The notes beneath the pieces were generated by a model. The model was given only the letters and a program-made list of their open reading frames with translations, had not been told where the DNA came from and made no database searches. A stretch of DNA of 64,000 nt from Pyrinomonadaceae bacterium (GTDB taxonomy: Bacteria; Acidobacteriota; Blastocatellia; Pyrinomonadales; Pyrinomonadaceae). Both the position numbers and the translations under genes were made by a program. The stretch spans positions 7,893-71,892 of the forward strand of contig JBOGOP010000003.1 of assembly GCA_050747225.1 (NCBI GenBank), in the 5' to 3' direction. Below are positions 1 through 5,844 of the stretch, one piece after another. The first letter of the stretch is position 1. Each line of letters begins with the position of its first letter.

Positions 1-37
1 TCAAAGTCCGACGTGCTGCCAGTTGCACTATCCCGCA
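1..37 (-). tRNA. tRNA-Gln(UUG), 5' half only (truncated by window edge)
   Basis: Reverse complement reads TGCGGGA-TA-GTGC..GCAC-G-TCGGA-CTTTGA. This gives an acceptor strand, a D arm, and an anticodon stem plus loop with UUG. U1 is typical of tRNA-Gln. Confidence 0.7.
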
Positions 38-42
38 AAAGC

Positions 43-127
43 AAGGATGAAGGCGGAAGGATGAAGGATGAATAGACGGTGGGGAAATTCACGGAGCTTC
101 AGCCCTCATCCTTCAGCCCTCATCCTT
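43..127. repeat. Heptamer-periodic inverted repeat, unit GGATGAA
   Basis: Left arm 43-72 is AAGGATGAAGGCGGAAGGATGAAGGATGAA. Right arm 98-127 is its near reverse complement. Both arms are tandem 7-nt units. Confidence 0.9.
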
Positions 128-132
128 TGATT

Positions 133-228
133 TGGTCGGGGCACTGGGACTCGAACCCAGAACCTTGCGCTTATCTGGCGCTAACACCGCTTATAAGGCG
201 GCTGCTCTGCCGATTGAGCTATGCCCCT
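133..228 (-). tRNA. Atypical 96-nt tRNA-like gene, anticodon-position UAU
   Basis: Normal D arm (GCTC/GAGC), T arm (CTGGG-TTCGAGT-CCCAG), A73 and CCA. The anticodon arm GCCGC-CTTATAA-GCGGT is followed by a 25-nt extra arm that is itself a stem with a 7-nt loop (GCGC-CAGATAA-GCGC). Position 1:72 is an A:G mismatch. Confidence 0.55.
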
Positions 229-234
229 CGATTC

Positions 235-314
235 CAAGTCCAAAGTCACTGGTCCAAAGTCCAAAGTCGATTTTGACCCTGACGTTAGACTTTGGACGTT
301 GGACTTTGGACTGG
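235..314. repeat. Heptamer-periodic inverted repeat, unit CAAAGTC
   Basis: Left arm 235-268 is built from (C)CAAAGTC units. Right arm 281-314 is built from GACTTTG units. Confidence 0.85.
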
Positions 315-319
315 TTTGT

Positions 320-393
320 TGGTCGCGGCGGAAGGAATCGAACCTACGTCGCTCGATTATCGATCGAGGGCTCTGCCATTGAGCTACACCGCG
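320..393 (-). tRNA. tRNA-Ile(GAU) with C33
   Basis: Acceptor CGCGGTG/CGCCGCG, A73, CCA. D arm GCTC/GAGC. Anticodon arm CTCGA-TCGATAA-TCGAG, so the loop has C at position 33. The T stem has one U:U mismatch. Confidence 0.7.
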
Positions 394-419
394 AAGAACA
401 GTTTCGAAACTTTTTGATT

Positions 420-495
420 TGGTTGACCCGACGGGACTTGAACCCGCACATCACGGCTTAAAAGGCCGCTTCTCTGCCACTCGAGTTCCGGGCCA
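420..495 (-). tRNA. tRNA-Lys(UUU)
   Basis: Acceptor TGGCCCG/CGGGTCA, A73, CCA. Anticodon arm GCGGC-CTTTTAA-GCCGT. T arm GCGGG-TTCAAGT-CCCGT. Position 8 is G rather than U. Confidence 0.8.
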
Positions 496-502
496 ACAAT
501 AA

Positions 503-582
503 GTTTCAAGTTCCAAGTTTCAAGTTTCAAGTTTCGCGGTCTCGCTAGAACAACTTGAAAGTTGAAACTTGGAACTTGAAAC
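503..582. repeat. Heptamer-periodic inverted repeat, unit TTTCAAG
   Basis: Left arm 503-534 and right arm 552-582 are almost perfectly complementary. Both are tandem 7-mers. Confidence 0.9.
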
Positions 583-590
583 TATTTATT

Positions 591-667
591 TGGCTGTGGC
601 GGAAGGATTCGAACCTTCGCATGGTCGGATTAACAATCCGATGCCTTACCAACTTGGCTACGCCACA
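591..667 (-). tRNA. tRNA-Asn(GUU)
   Basis: Perfect acceptor TGTGGCG/CGCCACA, G73, CCA. Anticodon arm TCGGA-TTGTTAA-TCCGA. T arm GAAGG-TTCGAAT-CCTTC. Confidence 0.9.
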
Positions 668-674
668 ATAAATT

Positions 675-775
675 TGGACTTAGGGCTTGGGTCTTTGGCC
701 TTTGAGTTTGCCAGCTACGCCGCGCCCTTGCATGTGAAGCACTTCAAAGACCCAAGACCAAAGGCCAAAGACCTT
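675..775. repeat. Heptamer-periodic inverted repeat, units GGTCTTT/CAAAGAC
   Basis: Left arm about 675-706 and right arm about 742-775. The central loop is about 35 nt. Confidence 0.85.
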
Positions 776-783
776 CTCTTAGT

Positions 784-864
784 TGGAGGCGATGAAGGGA
801 GTTGAACCCTTATCGTTCGGTTTACAAGACCGACGCTCTGATTATCCAATTGAGCTACATCGCC
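784..864 (-). tRNA. tRNA-Thr(UGU)
   Basis: Acceptor GGCGATG/CATCGCC, U73, CCA. Anticodon arm TCGGT-CTTGTAA-ACCGA. T arm AAGGG-TTCAACT-CCCTT. The D loop is unusually long at 13 nt. Confidence 0.85.
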
Positions 865-869
865 GGAAT

Positions 870-964
870 CAGTAGGCAGTAGGCAGTGGGCAGTGGGCAG
901 TAGGCAGCGGTTGGAAGTCGAGTGACTCTATCACTGCCTTCTGCCTTCTGCTTCCTGCTTACTG
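870..964. repeat. Heptamer-periodic inverted repeat, unit GCAGTAG
   Basis: Left arm 870-907 is (CAGTAGG/CAGTGGG)n. Right arm 932-964 is an imperfect complement. Confidence 0.85.
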
Positions 965-967
965 GTC

Positions 968-1041
968 TGGTGGAGCTAAGAGGAGTCGAACCTCTACGTC
1001 CTGCTTGCAAAGCAGGCATCATGCCGTTAGATCATAGCCCC
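968..1041 (-). tRNA. tRNA-Ala(UGC)
   Basis: Acceptor GGGGCTA/TAGCTCC with the G3:U70 Ala identity pair, A73, CCA. Anticodon arm CCTGC-TTTGCAA-GCAGG. Confidence 0.9.
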
Positions 1042-1048
1042 TTAAAAG

Positions 1049-1146
1049 AAGTTTCGAGTTCCGAGTTTCGGGTTTCGAGTTCATGAAGGATACTTGTAAC
1101 AGACGAAACTCAACCGTCTTGTTCCGGACTCGAAACTCGAAACTTC
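1049..1146. repeat. Heptamer-periodic inverted repeat, unit GTTTCGA
   Basis: Left arm 1049-1081 and right arm 1124-1146. Confidence 0.8.
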
Positions 1147-1154
1147 TTAAAGTT

Positions 1155-1232
1155 TGGTCGCGGAGGCGGGATTCGAACCCGCACCCTTTCGTTTATGAGA
1201 CGAACGCTCTTTCCAGTTTGAGCTACTCCGCA
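1155..1232 (-). tRNA. tRNA-Met(CAU), elongator type (could be Ile2/lysidine)
   Basis: Acceptor TGCGGAG/CTCCGCG (U1:G72), A73, CCA. Anticodon arm TTCGT-CTCATAA-ACGAA. It lacks the initiator C1:A72 mismatch and the GGG/CCC anticodon stem. Confidence 0.85.
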
Positions 1233-1256
1233 TCTGATTTCTCGTTTTTGGTTTAC

Positions 1257-1341
1257 TGGAAGCCCGCGGAGGAGTTGAACCTCATGCCTTCCGCCCAGCT
1301 CTAAGGTTCGGTTTAGAAGACCGGTGCCGGGAACGCGGGCC
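1257..1341 (-). tRNA. Aberrant 85-nt tRNA-like gene, anticodon-position UCU (Arg)
   Basis: Acceptor GGCCCGC(G)/(C)GCGGGCT, U73, CCA. T arm GAGG-TTCAACT-CCTC. Anticodon arm CCGGT-CTTCTAA-ACCGA. Only about 9 nt lie where a D arm should be, and a D-arm-like hairpin CCTT-AGAGCTGGGCGG-AAGG sits in the variable position. Confidence 0.45.
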
Positions 1342-1356
1342 GAAGGGCGAAGGAAT

Positions 1357-1438
1357 CAGGAGGCAGGAGCAGGAGGCAGGAGGCAGGCGGCAGGTAACCC
1401 CGGGATTCCTGCCTCCTGCACCTGCCTACTGCCTCCTG
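1357..1438. repeat. Heptamer-periodic inverted repeat, unit CAGGAGG
   Basis: Left arm 1357-1394 and right arm 1408-1438. It is followed on the plus strand by TTTTCTTTT. Confidence 0.85.
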
Positions 1439-1446
1439 TTTTCTTT

Positions 1447-1522
1447 TGGTGCCCAAGGAAGGACTCGAACCTTCAACCTCTGGTTTGTAGGACCAGCGCT
1501 CAGCCAGTTGAGCTACTCGGGC
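1447..1522 (-). tRNA. tRNA-Val(UAC) with C33
   Basis: Acceptor GCCCGAG/CTTGGGC, A73, CCA. Anticodon arm CTGGT-CCTACAA-ACCAG, so loop positions 32 and 33 are both C. Confidence 0.85.
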
Positions 1523-1527
1523 GAATC

Positions 1528-1616
1528 GAAGGATGAGGGCTGAAGGATGAAGGATGAAAAAAGCAGCCGGGCTTCTCGAGTTAATTTCATCCTTCATCCT
1601 TCAACCTTCATCCTTT
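1528..1616. repeat. Heptamer-periodic inverted repeat, unit GGATGAA
   Basis: Left arm 1528-1557 and right arm 1586-1616. Confidence 0.9.
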
Positions 1617-1621
1617 GCTTA

Positions 1622-1696
1622 TGGTGGTCGGAGTTGGAATTGAACCAACCTCTCGGGTTTTTCAAACCCACGCTAATCCATCTCAGCTATCCGACC
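1622..1696 (-). tRNA. tRNA-Phe(GAA)
   Basis: Acceptor GGTCGGA/TCCGACC, A73, CCA. Anticodon arm TGGGT-TTGAAAA-ACCCG. Confidence 0.9.
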
Positions 1697-1699
1697 GGA

Positions 1700-1798
1700 T
1701 TTGGTCTTTGGCCTTCGGTCTTTGGGCTTTGGGTTGGTTACGTCAATTGAAGAGTCCTGCCGAAACCACCTCCAAAGACCCAAGACCAAAGACTTAAG
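1700..1798. repeat. Heptamer-periodic inverted repeat, units GGTCTTT/CAAAGAC
   Basis: Left arm about 1700-1735 and right arm about 1769-1798. Confidence 0.85.
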
Positions 1799-1815
1799 AT
1801 CTTTTCGTCAGAAAC

Positions 1816-2394
1816 CTAAGACCTTCTTTCTTTGTGCACCTTCTCCATAACGTCACGATCGTCGTGCACGTCCATGAAGAGGTACTTGCGCCATTCAGCG
1901 CGTGCCTCAGCGTAGTGACAAAGCACGACGCGTTCGAGTTTCACGCGCAGCGCTGACTGCGAAGTCAGGAGCGGCATGCGCGCTTCACCCGGAGTGCGGT
2001 TCGCCTTGCGGTTATTACAAGGAACGCAAGCTGTCACTATGTTCACTGGCGAGTTATCACCACCACGCGAACGCGGCATAATGTGATCGAGTGTCAGCTC
2101 AGCCACACCTTTCTTTTCCGCGCAATACTGGCAGCGAAACTTGTCGCGCATGTAAATCCGCAGACGCTTCATGCCCGACTGCTCGCGGCGACGGCGAACG
2201 TTGATGTAAGTGCGTCGGCGAATCACCGACGGCACCGGAAATTCATCATGCGCCGAACGCAGCACGCGATCGCCGTCCCATTCCTCAACGAAGACGCTGT
2301 TTTTGAAAGTCATGATGACCGCGCGTGCAACACCGACAGTGCCGAGCGGTTCGTAAGTTTGATTGAGTAGTAGAACTCTGCCATTGAGTGCCAT
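1816..2394 (-). CDS. HNH endonuclease (Zn-finger type) embedded in the tRNA array
   Basis: ORF 1816..2448 trimmed to the ATG at 2394, which lies 9 nt downstream of AAGGAGG (2404-2410). The motifs are CQYC...LDHIMPRSRGG...N..CVPCNNRK. Confidence 0.8.
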   Translation of the reverse strand: MALNGRVLLLNQTYEPLGTVGVARAVIMTFKNSVFVEEWDGDRVLRSAHDEFPVPSVIRRRTYINVRRRREQSGMKRLRIYMRDKFRCQYCAEKKGVAELTLDHIMPRSRGGDNSPVNIVTACVPCNNRKANRTPGEARMPLLTSQSALRVKLERVVLCHYAEARAEWRKYLFMDVHDDRDVMEKVHKERRS

Positions 2395-2569
2395 CACCCG
2401 GCACCTCCTTTCGTTTGTTTTTTGCCGCGGATTAACGCGGACGAACACAGATAAGAAACTTCGAAGCAGGAAGTCGAGGCCGGCCTGGTCATTTCTGATC
2501 CGCGTTTTTCTGCGTTCGTCCGCGGCTGATTTGGATTTGGACTGCAGCTTAAGACTCCGGAATTGGAGT

Positions 2570-2697
2570 CAAGAGCGGTGGTGAGGAATGACTCGCTAGG
2601 TGCGAGTCCCGCTCTTGAGACTTGAGTAACGCAAACGGTTAGTTTGCGATTGCAAGTTGAGTTAGCTGCAACGATCGCAAACTAACAGTTTGCGTTA
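2570..2697. repeat. Two long hairpins in the leader between tRNA-Cys and the HNH gene
   Basis: Hairpin 2570-2618 pairs CAAGAGCGG with CCGCTCTTG and has an inner GACTCGC/GCGAGTC stem. Hairpin 2627-2697 pairs TAACGCAAACGGTTAGTTTGCGAT with ATCGCAAACTAACAGTTTGCGTTA. Neither is heptamer-periodic. Confidence 0.8.
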
Positions 2698-2705
2698 GAT
2701 AAAAA

Positions 2706-2781
2706 TTGGAGCGCGCGGTGAGACTCGAACTCACGAGTAACGGATTTGCAATCCGCCGCCTTAGCCGCTTGGCGACGCGCG
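2706..2781 (-). tRNA. tRNA-Cys(GCA)
   Basis: Acceptor GCGCGCG/CGCGCGC, U73 (Cys identity), CCA. Anticodon arm GCGGA-TTGCAAA-TCCGT. Confidence 0.9.
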
Positions 2782-2784
2782 CAC

Positions 2785-2862
2785 TGGAAGGATGAAGGAT
2801 GAAGGCGGAAGGATGAACAAGGCTTTTGCACCAACGAACTTTCATCCTTCATCCTTCATCCT
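2785..2862. repeat. Heptamer-periodic inverted repeat, unit GGATGAA
   Basis: Left arm 2785-2817 and right arm 2839-2862. Confidence 0.9.
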
Positions 2863-2868
2863 TTCAAC

Positions 2869-2944
2869 TGGAGCGGAAGGAGAGATTCGAACTCTCGATT
2901 CGAGTTTGGAAGACTCGCGGGTTTCCAGCTACCGACACTTCCGC
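2869..2944 (-). tRNA. tRNA-Gly(UCC)
   Basis: Acceptor GCGGAAG/CTTCCGC, U73, CCA. Anticodon arm CGAGT-CTTCCAA-ACTCG. T arm GAGAG-TTCGAAT-CTCTC. Confidence 0.88.
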
Positions 2945-2948
2945 AGGG

Positions 2949-3074
2949 AATTTCGGATTGCGAATTTCGGATTTCGGATTTGAAGATTGCGTGGCAGGAA
3001 TCCGGCCACCACTGAAATCACTTGGCATCGAAGCAAAGCTGAATTCGAAATTCGCAATCCGAAATCCGAAATTT
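2949..3074. repeat. Heptamer-periodic inverted repeat, unit CGGATTT
   Basis: Left arm about 2949-2981 and right arm about 3041-3074. The loop is about 60 nt. Confidence 0.85.
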
Positions 3075-3079
3075 GTTTT

Positions 3080-3155
3080 TGGGGCTCCTGGCAGGATTCG
3101 AACCCGCAACCTCGACGTTCGAAGCGTCGCGCTCTTCCAGTTGCGCTACAGGAGC
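3080..3155 (-). tRNA. tRNA-Arg(UCG)
   Basis: Acceptor GCTCCTG/CAGGAGC, C73, CCA. Anticodon arm CGACG-CTTCGAA-CGTCG. Confidence 0.88.
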
Positions 3156-3162
3156 AAAGGGG

Positions 3163-3286
3163 AATTTCGGATTGCGGATTTCGGATTTCGGATTTGAAAA
3201 CGCGCGCGAAGAAGACGGGTGCGGTCGAAATCAGCTTGCGACTTGCCAAAGCCAAATCCGCAATTCGAAGTCCGAATTCCGAAATT
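3163..3286. repeat. Heptamer-periodic inverted repeat, unit CGGATTT
   Basis: Left arm about 3163-3195 and right arm about 3253-3286. Confidence 0.85.
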
Positions 3287-3290
3287 TTTT

Positions 3291-3322
3291 GACTTTAGAC
3301 CTTGGACTTTCGACTTTGGACT
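3291..3322. repeat. Solo heptamer tract (GACTTTG-like x4), no local partner arm
   Basis: Sequence is GACTTTAGACCTTGGACTTTCGACTTTGGACT. The complementary CAAAGTC arms occur in other spacers. Confidence 0.8.
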
Positions 3323-3328
3323 AACGGC

Positions 3329-3402
3329 TGGTCGGGGAGGACAGAATTGAACTGTCGCCACGAGTTCCCAGGACTCGGATGCTCGCGTTACACCACACCC
3401 CG
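3329..3402 (-). tRNA. tRNA-Pro(UGG) with C33
   Basis: C1:G72 and A73 (Pro-like), CCA. Anticodon arm CGAGT-CCTGGGA-ACTCG. The acceptor has one U:U mismatch, and the D loop lacks a GG dinucleotide. Confidence 0.75.
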
Positions 3403-3407
3403 GAAGA

Positions 3408-3518
3408 ATTTCGGATTGCGGATTGCGGATTTCGGATTTGTTGTGAGGCGAATTAGACTTTTACTGGGTTCACGTCGGTTTTTCAATTTCGAAATCCGAA
3501 TTCCGCAATCCGAAATTT
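3408..3518. repeat. Heptamer-periodic inverted repeat, unit CGGATTT/CGGATTG
   Basis: Left arm 3408-3439 and right arm 3485-3518. It abuts the rtcB stop codon. Confidence 0.85.
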
Positions 3519-4697
3519 TCAACCTTTGACGCAGACCACCTGCTTGATCTCGGCAACGATCTTCACCAGATCGCTCTGGTTACGCATCACCGCCTTGATG
3601 TCTTTGTAAGCGCCGGGAATTTCATCCAGCACGCCTACGTCCTTACGACACTCAACGCCGTGTGTTTGTCGCGCCAAATCGTCTTTCGTAAAAGCCCGCT
3701 TGGCAGCGCCACGCGACATCTTGCGTCCCGCTCCGTGCGAACAGGAGTTGAAACTCTCCGCCCGGCCTCGCCCCTGCACGATGAACGATTTCGCGCCCAT
3801 CGAACCGGGGATGATGCCGTACACATCCTTGTCCGCGTTAATCGCGCCCTTGCGTGTGACGAAAACTTTTTCGCCGTAGTGATCTTCGAGCGCAACGTAG
3901 TTGTGATGGCAGTTAACTGCAATCTCAGGCTTGAAAGGCTGACGATGATTAAACATCTTGTTGAAGACCTTCAACAGACGCGTCATCATGATCTCGCGGT
4001 TCTTCATCGCGTAAGCTTGCGCCCACTTCAGGTCTTTCCAGTACGCCGCGAATTCCGGCGTGCCTTGAATGAAGTAAGCAAGATCCGGCGCAGGAAGTTC
4101 CGACAATGCCCACAAACCCTTGGCGGTCGAGATATGACGTTCGGCCAATTCCTTACCGATATTGCGCGAGCCTGAGTGCAGCATCAACCAGACGAAGTTT
4201 TCCGTGTCCAGACAAACTTCGATGAAGTGGTTGCCGCCACCGAGTGTGCCCAGTTGCGTCATCGCTTTCTTCCTGCGATCGCGTACGCCCTGGTGCAGTT
4301 CGCCGAAGTCTTTCCAGCCGTCCCAATCCGAGGCTTCATCTAGGGATTCTTTGTAGGCATTGAAACCGACCGGGATTTCTTCTTCGATCTTCAGACGCAG
4401 ATCCTTCAACTTGCCGTCAAGGATGCCGCTTCTGAATGGTGTCTTCACAGCCATCATGCCGCATCCGATGTCGACGCCGACTGTGGCGGGGATCACCGCT
4501 TCTTTCGTGGCCACGACCGAGCCGACCATGCTGCCTTTGCCCAAATGCGCGTCAGGCATCAGCGCAACGTGCTTGAACAAACATGGCAGACGCGAAACGT
4601 TTCGCAGCATCGCTTGCTCTTCAAAGCTGAACTCGTGACCGGCCCACGACAAGACCTCGGCGTGAGCTCCGCCAATTGGTAGTTTTTCGTAGGGCAT
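3519..4697 (-). CDS. rtcB: RNA 3'-phosphate/5'-OH ligase RtcB, embedded in the tRNA array
   Basis: 392-aa ORF carrying the RtcB blocks DIGCGM, GGGNHFIE, HSGSRNIG, CHHNY, PGSMG and SHGAGR. AGGAG lies 7 nt upstream of the ATG. Confidence 0.93.
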   Translation of the reverse strand: MPYEKLPIGGAHAEVLSWAGHEFSFEEQAMLRNVSRLPCLFKHVALMPDAHLGKGSMVGSVVATKEAVIPATVGVDIGCGMMAVKTPFRSGILDGKLKDLRLKIEEEIPVGFNAYKESLDEASDWDGWKDFGELHQGVRDRRKKAMTQLGTLGGGNHFIEVCLDTENFVWLMLHSGSRNIGKELAERHISTAKGLWALSELPAPDLAYFIQGTPEFAAYWKDLKWAQAYAMKNREIMMTRLLKVFNKMFNHRQPFKPEIAVNCHHNYVALEDHYGEKVFVTRKGAINADKDVYGIIPGSMGAKSFIVQGRGRAESFNSCSHGAGRKMSRGAAKRAFTKDDLARQTHGVECRKDVGVLDEIPGAYKDIKAVMRNQSDLVKIVAEIKQVVCVKG

Positions 4698-4752
4698 GTT
4701 GATTCTCCTTTCTTTAGAATAGTTAAGAACGTGAATTTGTAAATGACAGTTG

Positions 4753-4817
4753 CTGCCTACTGCCTACTGCCCACTGCTTCCTCCTACTGCCCACTGCCTC
4801 CTGCCTCCTGCCTACTG
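4753..4817. repeat. Solo 65-nt heptamer tract (CTGCCTA/CTGCCCA/CTGCCTC units) in the rtcB leader
   Basis: Tandem 7-mers with no complementary arm nearby. On the rtcB-sense strand it reads (CAGTAGG/CAGGAGG)n and contains three AGGAGG. Confidence 0.85.
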
Positions 4818-4822
4818 ATTCT

Positions 4823-4900
4823 TGGTGCGCCAGGTGAGACTCGAACTCACAATCCCCTGCTTAAGAGGCAGGTGCCTTAATCCGATTTAGCTACTGACGC
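4823..4900 (-). tRNA. tRNA-Lys(CUU)
   Basis: Acceptor GCGTCAG/CTGGCGC, A73, CCA. Anticodon arm CCTGC-CTCTTAA-GCAGG. T arm GTGAG-TTCGAGT-CTCAC. Confidence 0.85.
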
Positions 4901-4902
4901 AA

Positions 4903-5003
4903 GGTAGGACAGACATTTCTGTCTGTCCCTGTTAGTTGGGCAAACATGTCTGTCTGTCGCTGTTGTTCGAAAATGGTGGACAGGCAGTGAATGCCTGTCC
5001 TAC
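4903..5003. repeat. Composite REP-like element (GTAGGACAGACA..TGTCTGTCC ... GACAGGCA..TGCCTGTCCTAC)
   Basis: Two internal hairpins plus complementary ends. A second copy is at 28639-28742. Confidence 0.85.
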
Positions 5004-5004
5004 T

Positions 5005-5079
5005 TGGCGGAACTGAACGGACTCGAACCGTCATCGGCCTGGCTGACAACCAGGTGCCTCACCCCTCGGCCACAGTTCC
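5005..5079 (-). tRNA. tRNA-Asp(GUC)
   Basis: Acceptor GGAACTG/CAGTTCC, G73, CCA. Anticodon arm CCTGG-TTGTCAG-CCAGG. Confidence 0.9.
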
Positions 5080-5082
5080 AGA

Positions 5083-5230
5083 CGATTGCGGATTGCGGAT
5101 TTCTGAATGCGGATTGGCATTAGCTCGATGCTTGAAGCGCCTGGTCTTCGCAAATCTCGTGAGACGGGGTCTAAATTCTCCATCGAGTTACCATGCTAAT
5201 CCGCATTCGGCAATCCGAAATCTGCAATCG
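5083..5230. repeat. Heptamer-periodic inverted repeat, unit CGGATTG/CGGATTT
   Basis: Left arm 5083-5124 and right arm 5194-5230. The loop is about 70 nt. Confidence 0.8.
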
Positions 5231-5232
5231 TT

Positions 5233-5308
5233 TGGGTGGGTCGAAGGGAGTTGAACCCTCACCTTACGCGGTCACAACGCGGCGCTCTGCCGTTAAGCTA
5301 CGACCCAC
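5233..5308 (-). tRNA. tRNA-His(GUG) with encoded G-1
   Basis: G-1 opposite C73, acceptor TGGGTCG/CGACCCA, CCA. Anticodon arm CCGCG-TTGTGAC-CGCGT. Confidence 0.9.
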
Positions 5309-5313
5309 ACAAT

Positions 5314-5378
5314 GGGCGACAAGGAATCGAGCGCGACAATCACATTTCAAAGATGTAGTCACGTTCAGCATTCGCCCC
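5314..5378. repeat. 65-nt spacer repeat, copy 1 (tRNA-remnant-like)
   Basis: Shares GGGCGACAAGGAATCGAGCGCGAC ... ATGTAGTCAC[G/A]TTCAGCATTCGCCC with 5595-5651. The minus-strand RNA has GGGCGA/TCGCCC closing pairs, an ACAT-CTTTGAA-ATGT hairpin and a TCGATTCC T-loop-like motif. Confidence 0.7.
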
Positions 5379-5390
5379 GCAATCTTTCTC

Positions 5391-5468
5391 TGGTGCGCGT
5401 GGAGAGATTCGAACTCATCATGTCGCTGATCTTAAGTCAGCCGCCTCTGCCAGTTGGGCTACACGCGC
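5391..5468 (-). tRNA. Class-I (78-nt, short variable region) tRNA with Leu anticodon UAA
   Basis: Acceptor GCGCGTG/CACGCGC, A73, CCA. Anticodon arm GCTGA-CTTAAGA-TCAGC. There is no long variable arm, and the T stem has only about 3 good pairs. Confidence 0.7.
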
Positions 5469-5482
5469 AATCAATTCTCAAC

Positions 5483-5560
5483 TGGTACTCGCGGAGGGAT
5501 TCGAACCCACACTGTACAGTTCTTGAAACTGTCGTCTCCTGCCGATTGGACTACGCGAGC
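5483..5560 (-). tRNA. Class-I (78-nt) tRNA with Leu anticodon CAA
   Basis: Acceptor GCTCGCG/CGCGAGT (G1:U72), A73, CCA. Anticodon arm ACAGT-TTCAAGA-ACTGT. The variable region is 5 nt. T arm GTGGG-TTCGAAT-CCCTC. Confidence 0.75.
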
Positions 5561-5594
5561 AATAGCATGGTGTAGAGTGACGACTCTGATAAAC

Positions 5595-5651
5595 GGGCGA
5601 CAAGGAATCGAGCGCGACTTTGGACAATGTAGTCACATTCAGCATTCGCCC
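5595..5651. repeat. Spacer repeat, copy 2 (tRNA-remnant-like)
   Basis: Direct repeat of 5314-5378 with a diverged middle segment. Confidence 0.7.
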
Positions 5652-5656
5652 GGGAT

Positions 5657-5733
5657 TGGCAGGGATGACGGGACTCGAACCCGCAAATCAGCTGATTGAA
5701 GGTCAGCTTGCTTTCCATTTCGCATTCATCCCC
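5657..5733 (-). tRNA. tRNA-Glu(UUC) with C33
   Basis: Acceptor GGGGATG/CATCCCT (G1:U72), G73, CCA. Anticodon arm (A)GCTGA-CCTTCAA-TCAGC(T). Position 8 is A. Confidence 0.75.
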
Positions 5734-5737
5734 TGAA

Positions 5738-5841
5738 AAATTCGGATTTCGGAATGCGGATTTCGGATTTGTTTCGGCGGAGGCATTCCCTTAACCCGGG
5801 GATTTGCAAATCCGCAATCCGAAATCCGCATTCCGAAATTT
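5738..5841. repeat. Heptamer-periodic inverted repeat, unit CGGATTT
   Basis: Left arm 5738-5771 and right arm 5807-5841. Confidence 0.85.
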
Positions 5842-5844
5842 GAC

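Follow-up and report, generated by a model that had tools for sequence, protein, structure and literature searches.

The tRNA array and its long-armed gene

The window, that is, the whole stretch of 64,000 nucleotides considered here, comes from a Pyrinomonadaceae genome and starts inside a long array of tRNA genes, which in its entirety comprises 25 genes on one strand and covers 20 amino acids (contig C3:7855-14411). Genes for an HNH endonuclease and an RtcB RNA ligase lie within the array, and an Rsr-like gene is located directly downstream of it on the same strand, just outside the window (Table 1). Of the 41 related loci searched, 14 have a homologue of the latter gene beside the end of their array. 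In Salmonella, rsr, Y RNA and rtcBA form an RNA-repair operon, of which the RtcB gene in the array and the adjoining Rsr-like gene are reminiscent. An Rfam search of the 330-nt gap before rsr gave no match, Y-RNA families included, and the array spacers gave only weak YrlB-like matches, far below threshold.

The array is of the L-array type. L-arrays have been described as runs of about 25 tRNA genes on one strand, with HNH and rtcB neighbours and a patchy distribution suggesting horizontal transfer (Santamaria-Gomez 2021, PMC8421152). The linkage to HNH and rtcB is described there for cyanobacteria. The present array shows the corresponding traits, namely at least 20 tRNA genes in an operon-like run beyond the housekeeping set, linked HNH and rtcB genes and a patchy distribution. 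The host genome (5.9 Mb in 524 contigs) has 43 other ARAGORN calls outside the array, a few of them doubtful. L-arrays were described mainly in cyanobacteria and other phyla, whereas Acidobacteria are listed in the same source among the phyla with accretive arrays only (PMC8421152). The array of the Pyrinomonadaceae host shows that L-arrays are present in Acidobacteriota, here tied to RtcB and a Ro60-like gene. The literature searched for arrays that contain RtcB or come from Acidobacteria yielded PMC8421152 and a single follow-up paper only; neither 'variable arm' nor 'UAU' appears in the main text of the former.

The second-to-last of the 25 genes, at 133-228, is called by ARAGORN on the minus strand as tRNA-Ile(tat). 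It scores 56.4 bits against RF00005 (gathering score 29), with model positions 1-71 matched, and in the Infernal alignment the first of its two central hairpins is the anticodon arm, the second being placed as an insertion in the variable region. The unconstrained minimum-free-energy fold of the 96 nt consists of five helices (-36.9 kcal/mol, z -2.3), and 6 of 200 shuffled sequences fold as well. The cloverleaf is of the 7/5 acceptor/T type and has 25 nt between the anticodon stem and the T stem. The anticodon loop has the canonical 7 nt with U33 and A37, and the sequence that links the extra hairpin to the T stem looks like the variable loop of an ordinary class-I tRNA.

This architecture had been described in a sequence-only reading of the window. 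The acceptor stem, D arm, T arm, A73 and CCA, which it took to be normal, are all present according to ARAGORN, RF00005 and the fold; the two consecutive hairpins, with UAU and then GAU at the anticodon position of loops CUUAUAA and CAGAUAA, recur among the five helices of the unconstrained fold; and the cloverleaf gives the same length of 25 nt for the extra region beyond the anticodon arm. The check that it proposed, ARAGORN with RNA folding, thus returns both a tRNA call and the described structure as the minimum-free-energy fold. The A:G that it noted at pair 1:72 is likewise there, the other helices and the loops being intact. The nearest relatives (97.9% identity) carry C1:G72, and among 110 distinct relatives C:G is the commonest pair at this position (76 rows), a non-standard pair being found in 3 rows including the 133-228 copy. 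A1 could be a true mutation or an assembly error, and the A1:G72 mismatch could impair this particular copy. We are highly confident that 133-228 is a real gene of a conserved structured family.

Table 1. Features of the array and of the tRNA gene at 133-228. For the parts of this tRNA, the window coordinate equals 229 minus the RNA position.
Feature	Window coordinates	RNA positions	Strand	Evidence
Long tRNA gene array; 24 genes in the window plus tRNA-Gln(UUG) cut by its left edge	1..6519		-	
tRNA gene, anticodon UAU, extra hairpin, encoded CCA, 96 nt	133..228		-	ARAGORN; RF00005; fold
Acceptor stem, 7 bp		1-7 with 86-92	-	cloverleaf
D arm, 4-bp stem, 8-nt loop containing GG		10-25	-	cloverleaf
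Anticodon arm, 5-bp stem, loop CUUAUAA	186..202	27-43	-	cloverleaf; Infernal alignment
Anticodon UAU	193-195	34-36	-	cloverleaf; Infernal alignment
Linker from anticodon stem to extra hairpin, 4 nt		44-47	-	cloverleaf
Extra hairpin, 4-bp G/C stem, 7-nt loop CAGAUAA	167..181	48-62	-	fold; covariation
GAU of the extra loop	173-175	54-56	-	fold
3' linker AAGGUU, extra hairpin to T stem	161..166	63-68	-	family linkers
T arm, 5-bp stem	144..160	69-85	-	cloverleaf; 3/5 pairs changed on both sides
A73; CCA		93; 94-96	-	cloverleaf
tRNA-Ile(GAU), ordinary length, 74 nt, loop UCGAUAA	320..393		-	ARAGORN; cloverleaf
HNH endonuclease gene inside the array	1816..2448		-	PF14279 2e-14; PF01844 3.9e-13
RtcB RNA ligase gene inside the array	3519..4697		-	PF01139 2.9e-121
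Rsr-like (Ro60/TROVE) gene, 527 aa	left of the window (L310:5941-7524 = G000:C3:5941-7524)		-	Ro60 vWA and weak TROVE matches

Conservation of the extra hairpin

Copies of the gene were gathered by four routes, and 110 distinct sequences of the 7/5 type (23 from related genomes, 26 from GTDB contigs, 51 from metagenomes and 10 from viral contigs) were aligned with MAFFT with no structure fitting. In the alignment, 97.3% of the cells are paired and 19 of the 25 pairs have changed on both sides, values reached by none of 500 shuffles, and shifting the partners by 1-3 columns lowers the pairing to 33-44%. The anticodon stem appears invariant, but only because it was fixed by two of the search patterns. 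The extra helix is 96.5% paired, and all four of its pairs have changed on both sides. The G and A of its loop are invariant in 110 of 110 sequences and are followed by U in at least 90% of them. A73 is found in 107 of the 110 sequences. Judged by this alignment, the sequences form a family, the GAY-hairpin tRNA(UAU) genes, with a hairpin between position 43 and the variable loop, a G-A-Y centre in its loop and a covarying stem, and the gene at 133-228 has all of these features.

Searches with either hairpin left free

A pattern that fixes the extra hairpin and leaves the anticodon loop free found 51 loci, which say nothing about the hairpin since it was part of the pattern. When these were pooled with the BLAST copies, the resulting 54 distinct sequences had UAU in all intact copies, the exceptions being L051 and the degraded copies. 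The converse pattern, in which the UAU arm and the T loop were fixed and the 4-34 nt separating them were free, matched at least 119 loci in metagenomes and 56 viral loci. These matches are of four kinds: class-I tRNA(UAU), the GAY-hairpin type, a marine phage type that lacks a normal D arm and a few allo-tRNA-like genes. Among the matches listed, a GAY-centred hairpin occurs in 64 of the 68 distinct 7/5 sequences that have at least 18 nt free; the remaining four are three allo-like genes and one unrelated sequence. Across the whole set, the GAY loop sits on 19 different stem sequences. The loops are CAGAUNA, CUGAUAA, UAGAUAA (AGAUA if the closing U:A pairs), CCGAUUA, CGGAYNA, AGAUC, AGAUG, GGACG and GUGACG, and the commonest 3' linkers are AAGGUU, GAGGUU and CCAGGU.

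A third pattern, blind to the anticodon because it fixes the hairpin and the T loop only, found at least 120 viral loci. ARAGORN calls a tRNA in 106 of them and, among the matches listed, all 106 have the anticodon UAU. The other 14 listed phage loci include 11 with a UAU loop by eye, one that is truncated and two that are not tRNAs. Each of the two hairpins is thus conserved when the other serves as bait. These genes also matter for annotation, as 'tRNA-Ile(tat)' genes of odd length may be discarded as pseudogenes.

The marine type, a separate observation, was seen in marine metagenomes and large phage contigs (L094, L105, L111, L143, L170, L224, L235, L266 and about 45 more) as a UAU tRNA-like gene with no ordinary D arm. 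It has the same anticodon arm, and a short C-rich stretch before this arm could pair with a G-rich stretch within the long region that follows it. Most of these genes are missed by ARAGORN.

Distribution and origin

GAY-hairpin tRNAs occur far beyond chance. With the 96 nt as a BLAST query, 50 of 185 genomes of the genus gave a match at E<=0.001, about 40 of the 185 having a near-full-length copy (counted from the table). At E<=1e-10, a match was found in 27 of the 401 genomes sampled from the class, and these belong to 12 of 88 genera in three families; the tallies for genus and class both take in the unpublished genome G035. Close copies come from genomes labelled Pyrinomonadaceae, Blastocatellia or Acidobacteriota and from one bin labelled Gammaproteobacteria. 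BLAST of the 133-228 gene against INPHARED phages and PLSDB plasmids returned only partial matches to D/anticodon-arm stretches of other tRNAs, and two divergent family members had no match in INPHARED. A search of sequencing runs for the window listed no RNA run, the hits being soil DNA runs with small shares only. The GAY-hairpin type is common both among phages and among mobile arrays of tRNA genes. One complete phage record of 210 kb encodes a long-armed UAU tRNA as well as an ordinary tRNA-Ile(GAU) that has the same acceptor stem and A73, and a separate Ile(GAU) is also present in four of the five phage records checked.

A large phage subgroup of the family (L329, L332, L336 and many more) has a compact D arm, consisting of a 4-bp stem and a tetraloop, and a different 3' linker. 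This D arm resembles that of tRNA-Sec or allo-tRNA, so the hairpin travels on more than one kind of tRNA core.

The sequence-only reading had raised the possibility of a duplication intermediate and, as an outcome that homologues might reveal, a decaying fusion of two Ile genes. Genes of such arrays do fuse. At L003:1869-1964 (minus strand) there is a 96-nt Met/Thr chimera with two anticodon arms, in which tRNA-Met from its 5' end through the anticodon arm is joined to tRNA-Thr from the anticodon arm through the 3' end; it shows deletion-fusion of neighbouring array genes. Degraded copies exist as well: L013 and L055 are truncated, the 5' half is broken in L019 and L064, and L051 lacks 2 nt of the UAU loop. 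In the lineage of the 133-228 gene the two hairpins share the loop-flanking bases on both sides. Genes of these arrays thus do undergo fusion, but fusion does not explain the GAY-hairpin family. The homologues do not bear out a decaying fusion: compensatory changes are found in all helices and keep the five of them paired, the loop triplet is kept on 19 stem sequences, and the gene occurs in 12 of the 88 sampled genera of the class and at no fewer than 120 phage loci. A duplication intermediate is equally unsupported as an account of what the gene is now, given the four covarying pairs of the extra helix and the invariant G-A of its loop in 110 sequences. We consider it very improbable that the gene is an intermediate or decaying fusion devoid of a function of its own. 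For the family, decay is contradicted; it could hold for the 133-228 copy alone, and only if the change to A1 kills this copy. An ancient origin of the extra hairpin from a duplicated anticodon arm is plausible.

Amino-acid identity and probable AUA decoding

The isoleucine determinants of E. coli comprise A73, A35, U36, A37, A38, U12:A23, C29:G41 and C4:G69 (PMC9976931). The 133-228 copy matches these at A35, U36, A37, A38, A73, U12:A23 and C29:G41, whereas its pair 4:69 is G:C and not C4:G69, in a set of determinants defined for E. coli, which belongs to another phylum. Distant copies from Blastocatellia, collected by BLAST alone (n=11), are informative as to the anticodon: four of the 11 have the same body and the GAY hairpin with GAU instead of UAU as the main anticodon. 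In one of these arrays, the long-armed GAU gene occupies the usual place at the end, with a class-I UAU gene located elsewhere in the array; a second array, of 23 genes, has no Ile gene besides the long-armed GAU one; and in a third the long-armed GAU and UAU genes stand in tandem and have the same acceptor stem. An anticodon outside the Ile box was not seen by any collection route; since UAU changes only to GAU, the anticodon stays within this box. When the hairpin was removed and the body compared with the genome's own tRNAs, Ile was not singled out, the best scores being those of Val, Lys and His.

On the basis of these sequence features, we infer that GAY-hairpin tRNA is probably charged with isoleucine and reads AUA. 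An unusual AUA decoder had been one of three readings proposed from the sequence alone, and it is the one that best fits the canonical anticodon loop, the UAU in 106 of 106 listed phage tRNAs and the change to GAU only. The accompanying remark that Ile tRNAs are class I holds for the described tRNAs; the GAY-hairpin family has a class-I core with an added hairpin. Two working anticodons on one tRNA were also considered and appear unlikely, as most extra loops lack U33 and a purine at 37 and a separate Ile(GAU) is available in four of five phage records.

The third of the proposed readings, a tRNA-like RNA with no part in translation, would make the gene product a regulator, a decoy or a partner of the Ro60-like protein, as Y RNAs with tRNA-like domains are. 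The Rsr gene next to the array and the A1:G72 mismatch of the 133-228 copy are in line with such a role, which we nonetheless regard as improbable: the acceptor stem, A73, the T loop and the canonical 7-nt anticodon loop are kept under compensatory change, the anticodon is limited to the Ile box, the gene sits in sets that otherwise provide one tRNA per amino acid, and no Y-RNA family of Rfam matches near rsr.

Relation to other long-armed tRNAs

In the full-text literature searched, which covers openly accessible papers, we found no description of an Ile-type 7/5 tRNA with a GAY hairpin. The allo-tRNAs(UAU) of Acidobacteria share with the 133-228 tRNA the phylum, the UAU anticodon, a long extra arm and a mobile context (Mukai 2017, PMC5389517). 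According to the same source, they differ in that the acceptor/T arrangement is 8/4 or 9/3, the long D stem carries a tetraloop, base 73 is mostly G or U and the extra arm is of the serine type, as opposed to 7/5, A73 and the GAY loop. Membership in this group is ruled out by the 7-bp acceptor stem and the 5-bp T stem, both supported by covariation. Allo-like UAU genes found by the UAU-fixed scan (L109, L119 and L158) are without the GAY hairpin. The nematode nev-tRNA-Ile(UAU) also combines UAU with a long variable arm, but it is eukaryotic, derived from tRNA-Leu and charged with leucine (Hamashima 2012, PMC3333845), in contrast to the GAY-hairpin family, which has a class-I-like core and an anticodon that does not leave the Ile box. 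Class II tRNAs (Leu, Ser and bacterial Tyr) likewise have an extra helix between the anticodon and T arms. In the class II copies of the host, the 3' linkers are short, the D stems have 3 bp and the arm loops are not conserved, whereas GAY-hairpin tRNAs have a 4-bp D stem, a 3' linker of 5-6 nt that resembles a variable loop and a conserved loop triplet. The 133-228 gene was accordingly rejected as a class II member on its 4-bp D stem, 8-nt D loop, UAU anticodon and 6-nt 3' linker.

These tRNAs bear on the possibility that the gene product is a class-II-like tRNA which, through its long arm, is mischarged with serine or leucine and so recodes AUA. The long arm in combination with UAU would fit, UAU allo-tRNAs being common in Acidobacteria (PMC5389517), as would the leucine charging of nev-tRNA-Ile(UAU) (PMC3333845) and A73, the leucine discriminator. 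However, the acceptor/T arrangement is 7/5 instead of 8/4 or 9/3, the D arm has a 4-bp stem and an 8-nt loop as against the 3-bp D stems and long D loops of the array's own Leu tRNAs, base 73 is A and not the serine-type G, and the hairpin lies 5' of an intact linker of the variable-loop kind. Bacterial LeuRS is not known to need a long arm, which also counts against mischarging. For SerRS, reviews give the orientation of the arm more weight than its sequence; under serine charging, conservation of the extra loop would thus be unexpected. The anticodon confined to the Ile box, moreover, speaks against an identity-free drift. Mischarging is accordingly an improbable reading, even more so than an RNA outside translation.

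A possible role of the extra hairpin

AUA is the one sense codon that demands a special solution in bacteria, either lysidine made by TilS or an adapted IleRS. A widespread and structurally distinct tRNA for AUA, used by phages and mobile arrays, would be a third solution. The host of the array has tilS (167 bits), and its IleRS is of the Trp type, with R-C-W aligned to R888-C889-W890 of S. aureus. A chromosomal tRNA(CAU) of this genome looks like tRNA-Ile2, an assignment that is our interpretation, and ATA makes up 11% of the Ile codons in long open frames. In IleRS, this Trp stacks on the wobble base, and the Trp-type enzyme of E. coli charges tRNA-Ile(UAU) poorly, its W905R variant having an approximately 20-fold higher specificity for the UAU anticodon than the wild type (Taniguchi 2013, PMC3575796). 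A mobile UAU tRNA would consequently be a poor substrate in such hosts. The class-I tRNA-Ile2(UAU) of Mycoplasma mobile shares with the 133-228 tRNA the UAU anticodon, A37, A73 and the reading of AUA without lysidine, which is predicted for the latter; the Mycoplasma tRNA is about 76 nt long with a variable loop of 4-5 nt, and its IleRS has Arg or Lys at the site that contacts the wobble base (PMC3575796). Compared with this type, the 133-228 tRNA adds a 15-nt GAY-tipped hairpin and a linker, and it resides in a host with a Trp-type IleRS and tilS.

The explanation that we tentatively favour is that the gene encodes a working or recently working UAU tRNA of a conserved family, which would accept isoleucine and read AUA and whose extra arm would be a handle for IleRS. 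In this scheme, an isoleucine body of the class-I type would read AUA through its UAU anticodon. The short hairpin is an insert that follows the anticodon stem (position 43) and precedes the variable loop, and the centre of its own loop is G-A-U or, rarely, G-A-C. It has about the length of the anticodon arm and starts from the same junction, and it would present a GAU pseudo-anticodon to IleRS. By virtue of the GAU hairpin, a tRNA with U at the wobble position might still be charged with isoleucine by an ordinary Trp-type IleRS, while the true UAU loop would decode on the ribosome. A mobile set of tRNAs, be it a phage cluster or a moving array, would then be able to read AUA in any host, with no call on the host's TilS or on an adapted IleRS.

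The near-exclusive link between the hairpin and UAU in phages fits the handle role, and so does an engineered precedent. In V-arm tRNAs, an extra arm that copies the cognate anticodon arm can raise aminoacylation, a GUG pseudo-anticodon in the arm having enhanced histidylation (Mukai 2020, PMC7590224). These tRNAs are, however, synthetic, are built on an allo-tRNA chassis and needed a HisRS fused to a second anticodon-binding domain (PMC7590224), a requirement that counts against the handle. Several properties of the extra loop also set it apart from a true Ile anticodon loop: the base at the position of 33 is A in most copies, that at the position of 37 is A, C or U, and in some members loop-closing U:A, U:G or C:G pairs reduce the loop to 5 nt. 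In a few copies, the loop triplet is GAC, the valine anticodon. IleRS is a monomer with a single anticodon-binding site, which is a further argument against a second point of recognition. Finally, the hairpin cannot be only a fix for U34 because it is kept on copies whose main anticodon is already GAU. In view of the single binding site, the atypical loop, the GAC copies and the hairpin on GAU-anticodon copies, we rate a function of the hairpin as an IleRS handle as possible rather than probable. A tertiary partner for GAY was looked for as well; the idea was dropped, no conserved complement being found by eye in the D loop or T loop.

The main rival to the handle is an isoleucine-accepting AUA decoder whose hairpin has some other purpose, be it a decoy for nucleases, a site of repair or quality control, a block to modification of the wobble U or an aid to decoding accuracy. 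As a nuclease decoy, the hairpin would be a sacrificial target for nucleases that cut the anticodon loop of tRNA-Ile(GAU). The array itself offers some grounds for this group of roles: RtcB is encoded within it, a Ro60/TROVE (Rsr) gene follows directly downstream, Rsr adjoining the array in 14 of 41 related loci, and array tRNAs have been proposed to be sponges for toxin RNases (PMC8421152). The retention of the hairpin on copies with a GAU anticodon and the dissimilarity of its loop to a canonical anticodon loop point in the same direction. On the other hand, all such roles would leave to coincidence both the link to UAU in phages (106 of 106 listed) and the choice of GAU as the loop triplet. 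Taken jointly, with the decoy included, they have in our judgement a rather low probability, though a substantial one.

Returning to the handle, its broadest form would be a natural tRNA that splits identity, read by IleRS from the GAU hairpin, from decoding, carried out by the UAU hairpin on the ribosome, and that would thereby decode AUA in hosts with any type of TilS and IleRS. This we put forward as a doubtful but specific idea on AUA decoding and synthetase recognition, which becomes directly testable. If true, a pseudo-anticodon arm would be seen for the first time in a natural tRNA, no case having been found in the literature searched. If the extra arm is a synthetase handle, it would also offer a natural, ready design for orthogonal tRNAs, based on a principle that has so far been engineered only.

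Other features of the array

The neighbouring tRNA-Ile(GAU) at 320-393 has C at position 33 and not the near-universal U; its relatives have U or C. Most gaps between the tRNA genes of the array are 75-215 nt long (e.g., window 42-132, 229-319, 496-590, 865-967, 1042-1154 and 1341-1446). Three spacers were folded, and each is a long, near-perfect hairpin made of short tandem repeats and their complement (z -6.4, -12.6 and -8.3), with a repeat unit that differs from spacer to spacer among the three. Since the same tRNA genes are only 3-10 nt apart in related arrays, the hairpin spacers look like later additions.

The three tRNA-Leu genes of the array (window 5391-5468, 5483-5560 and 5845-5922, all on the minus strand) are 78 nt long, with a short variable loop, a D stem of 3 bp and a long D loop, as against 85-87 nt for the chromosomal Leu tRNAs of the host. 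Short Leu tRNAs are also found in the phage tRNA clusters examined. Between tRNA-Met and tRNA-Val, the segment at 1258-1345 (minus strand) is tRNA-like in that its ends pair and it has a hairpin resembling a T arm and perhaps a UCU loop. It is not called by ARAGORN, matches tRNA-Sec of Rfam weakly (26 bits, E 0.08) and folds no better than its shuffles (z -1.1); in related arrays, a normal tRNA-Arg(UCU) stands at about this place. Approximately 5 kb past the array, the window encodes a protein of 450 aa with a Schlafen AlbA_2 domain (11704-13056, minus strand).
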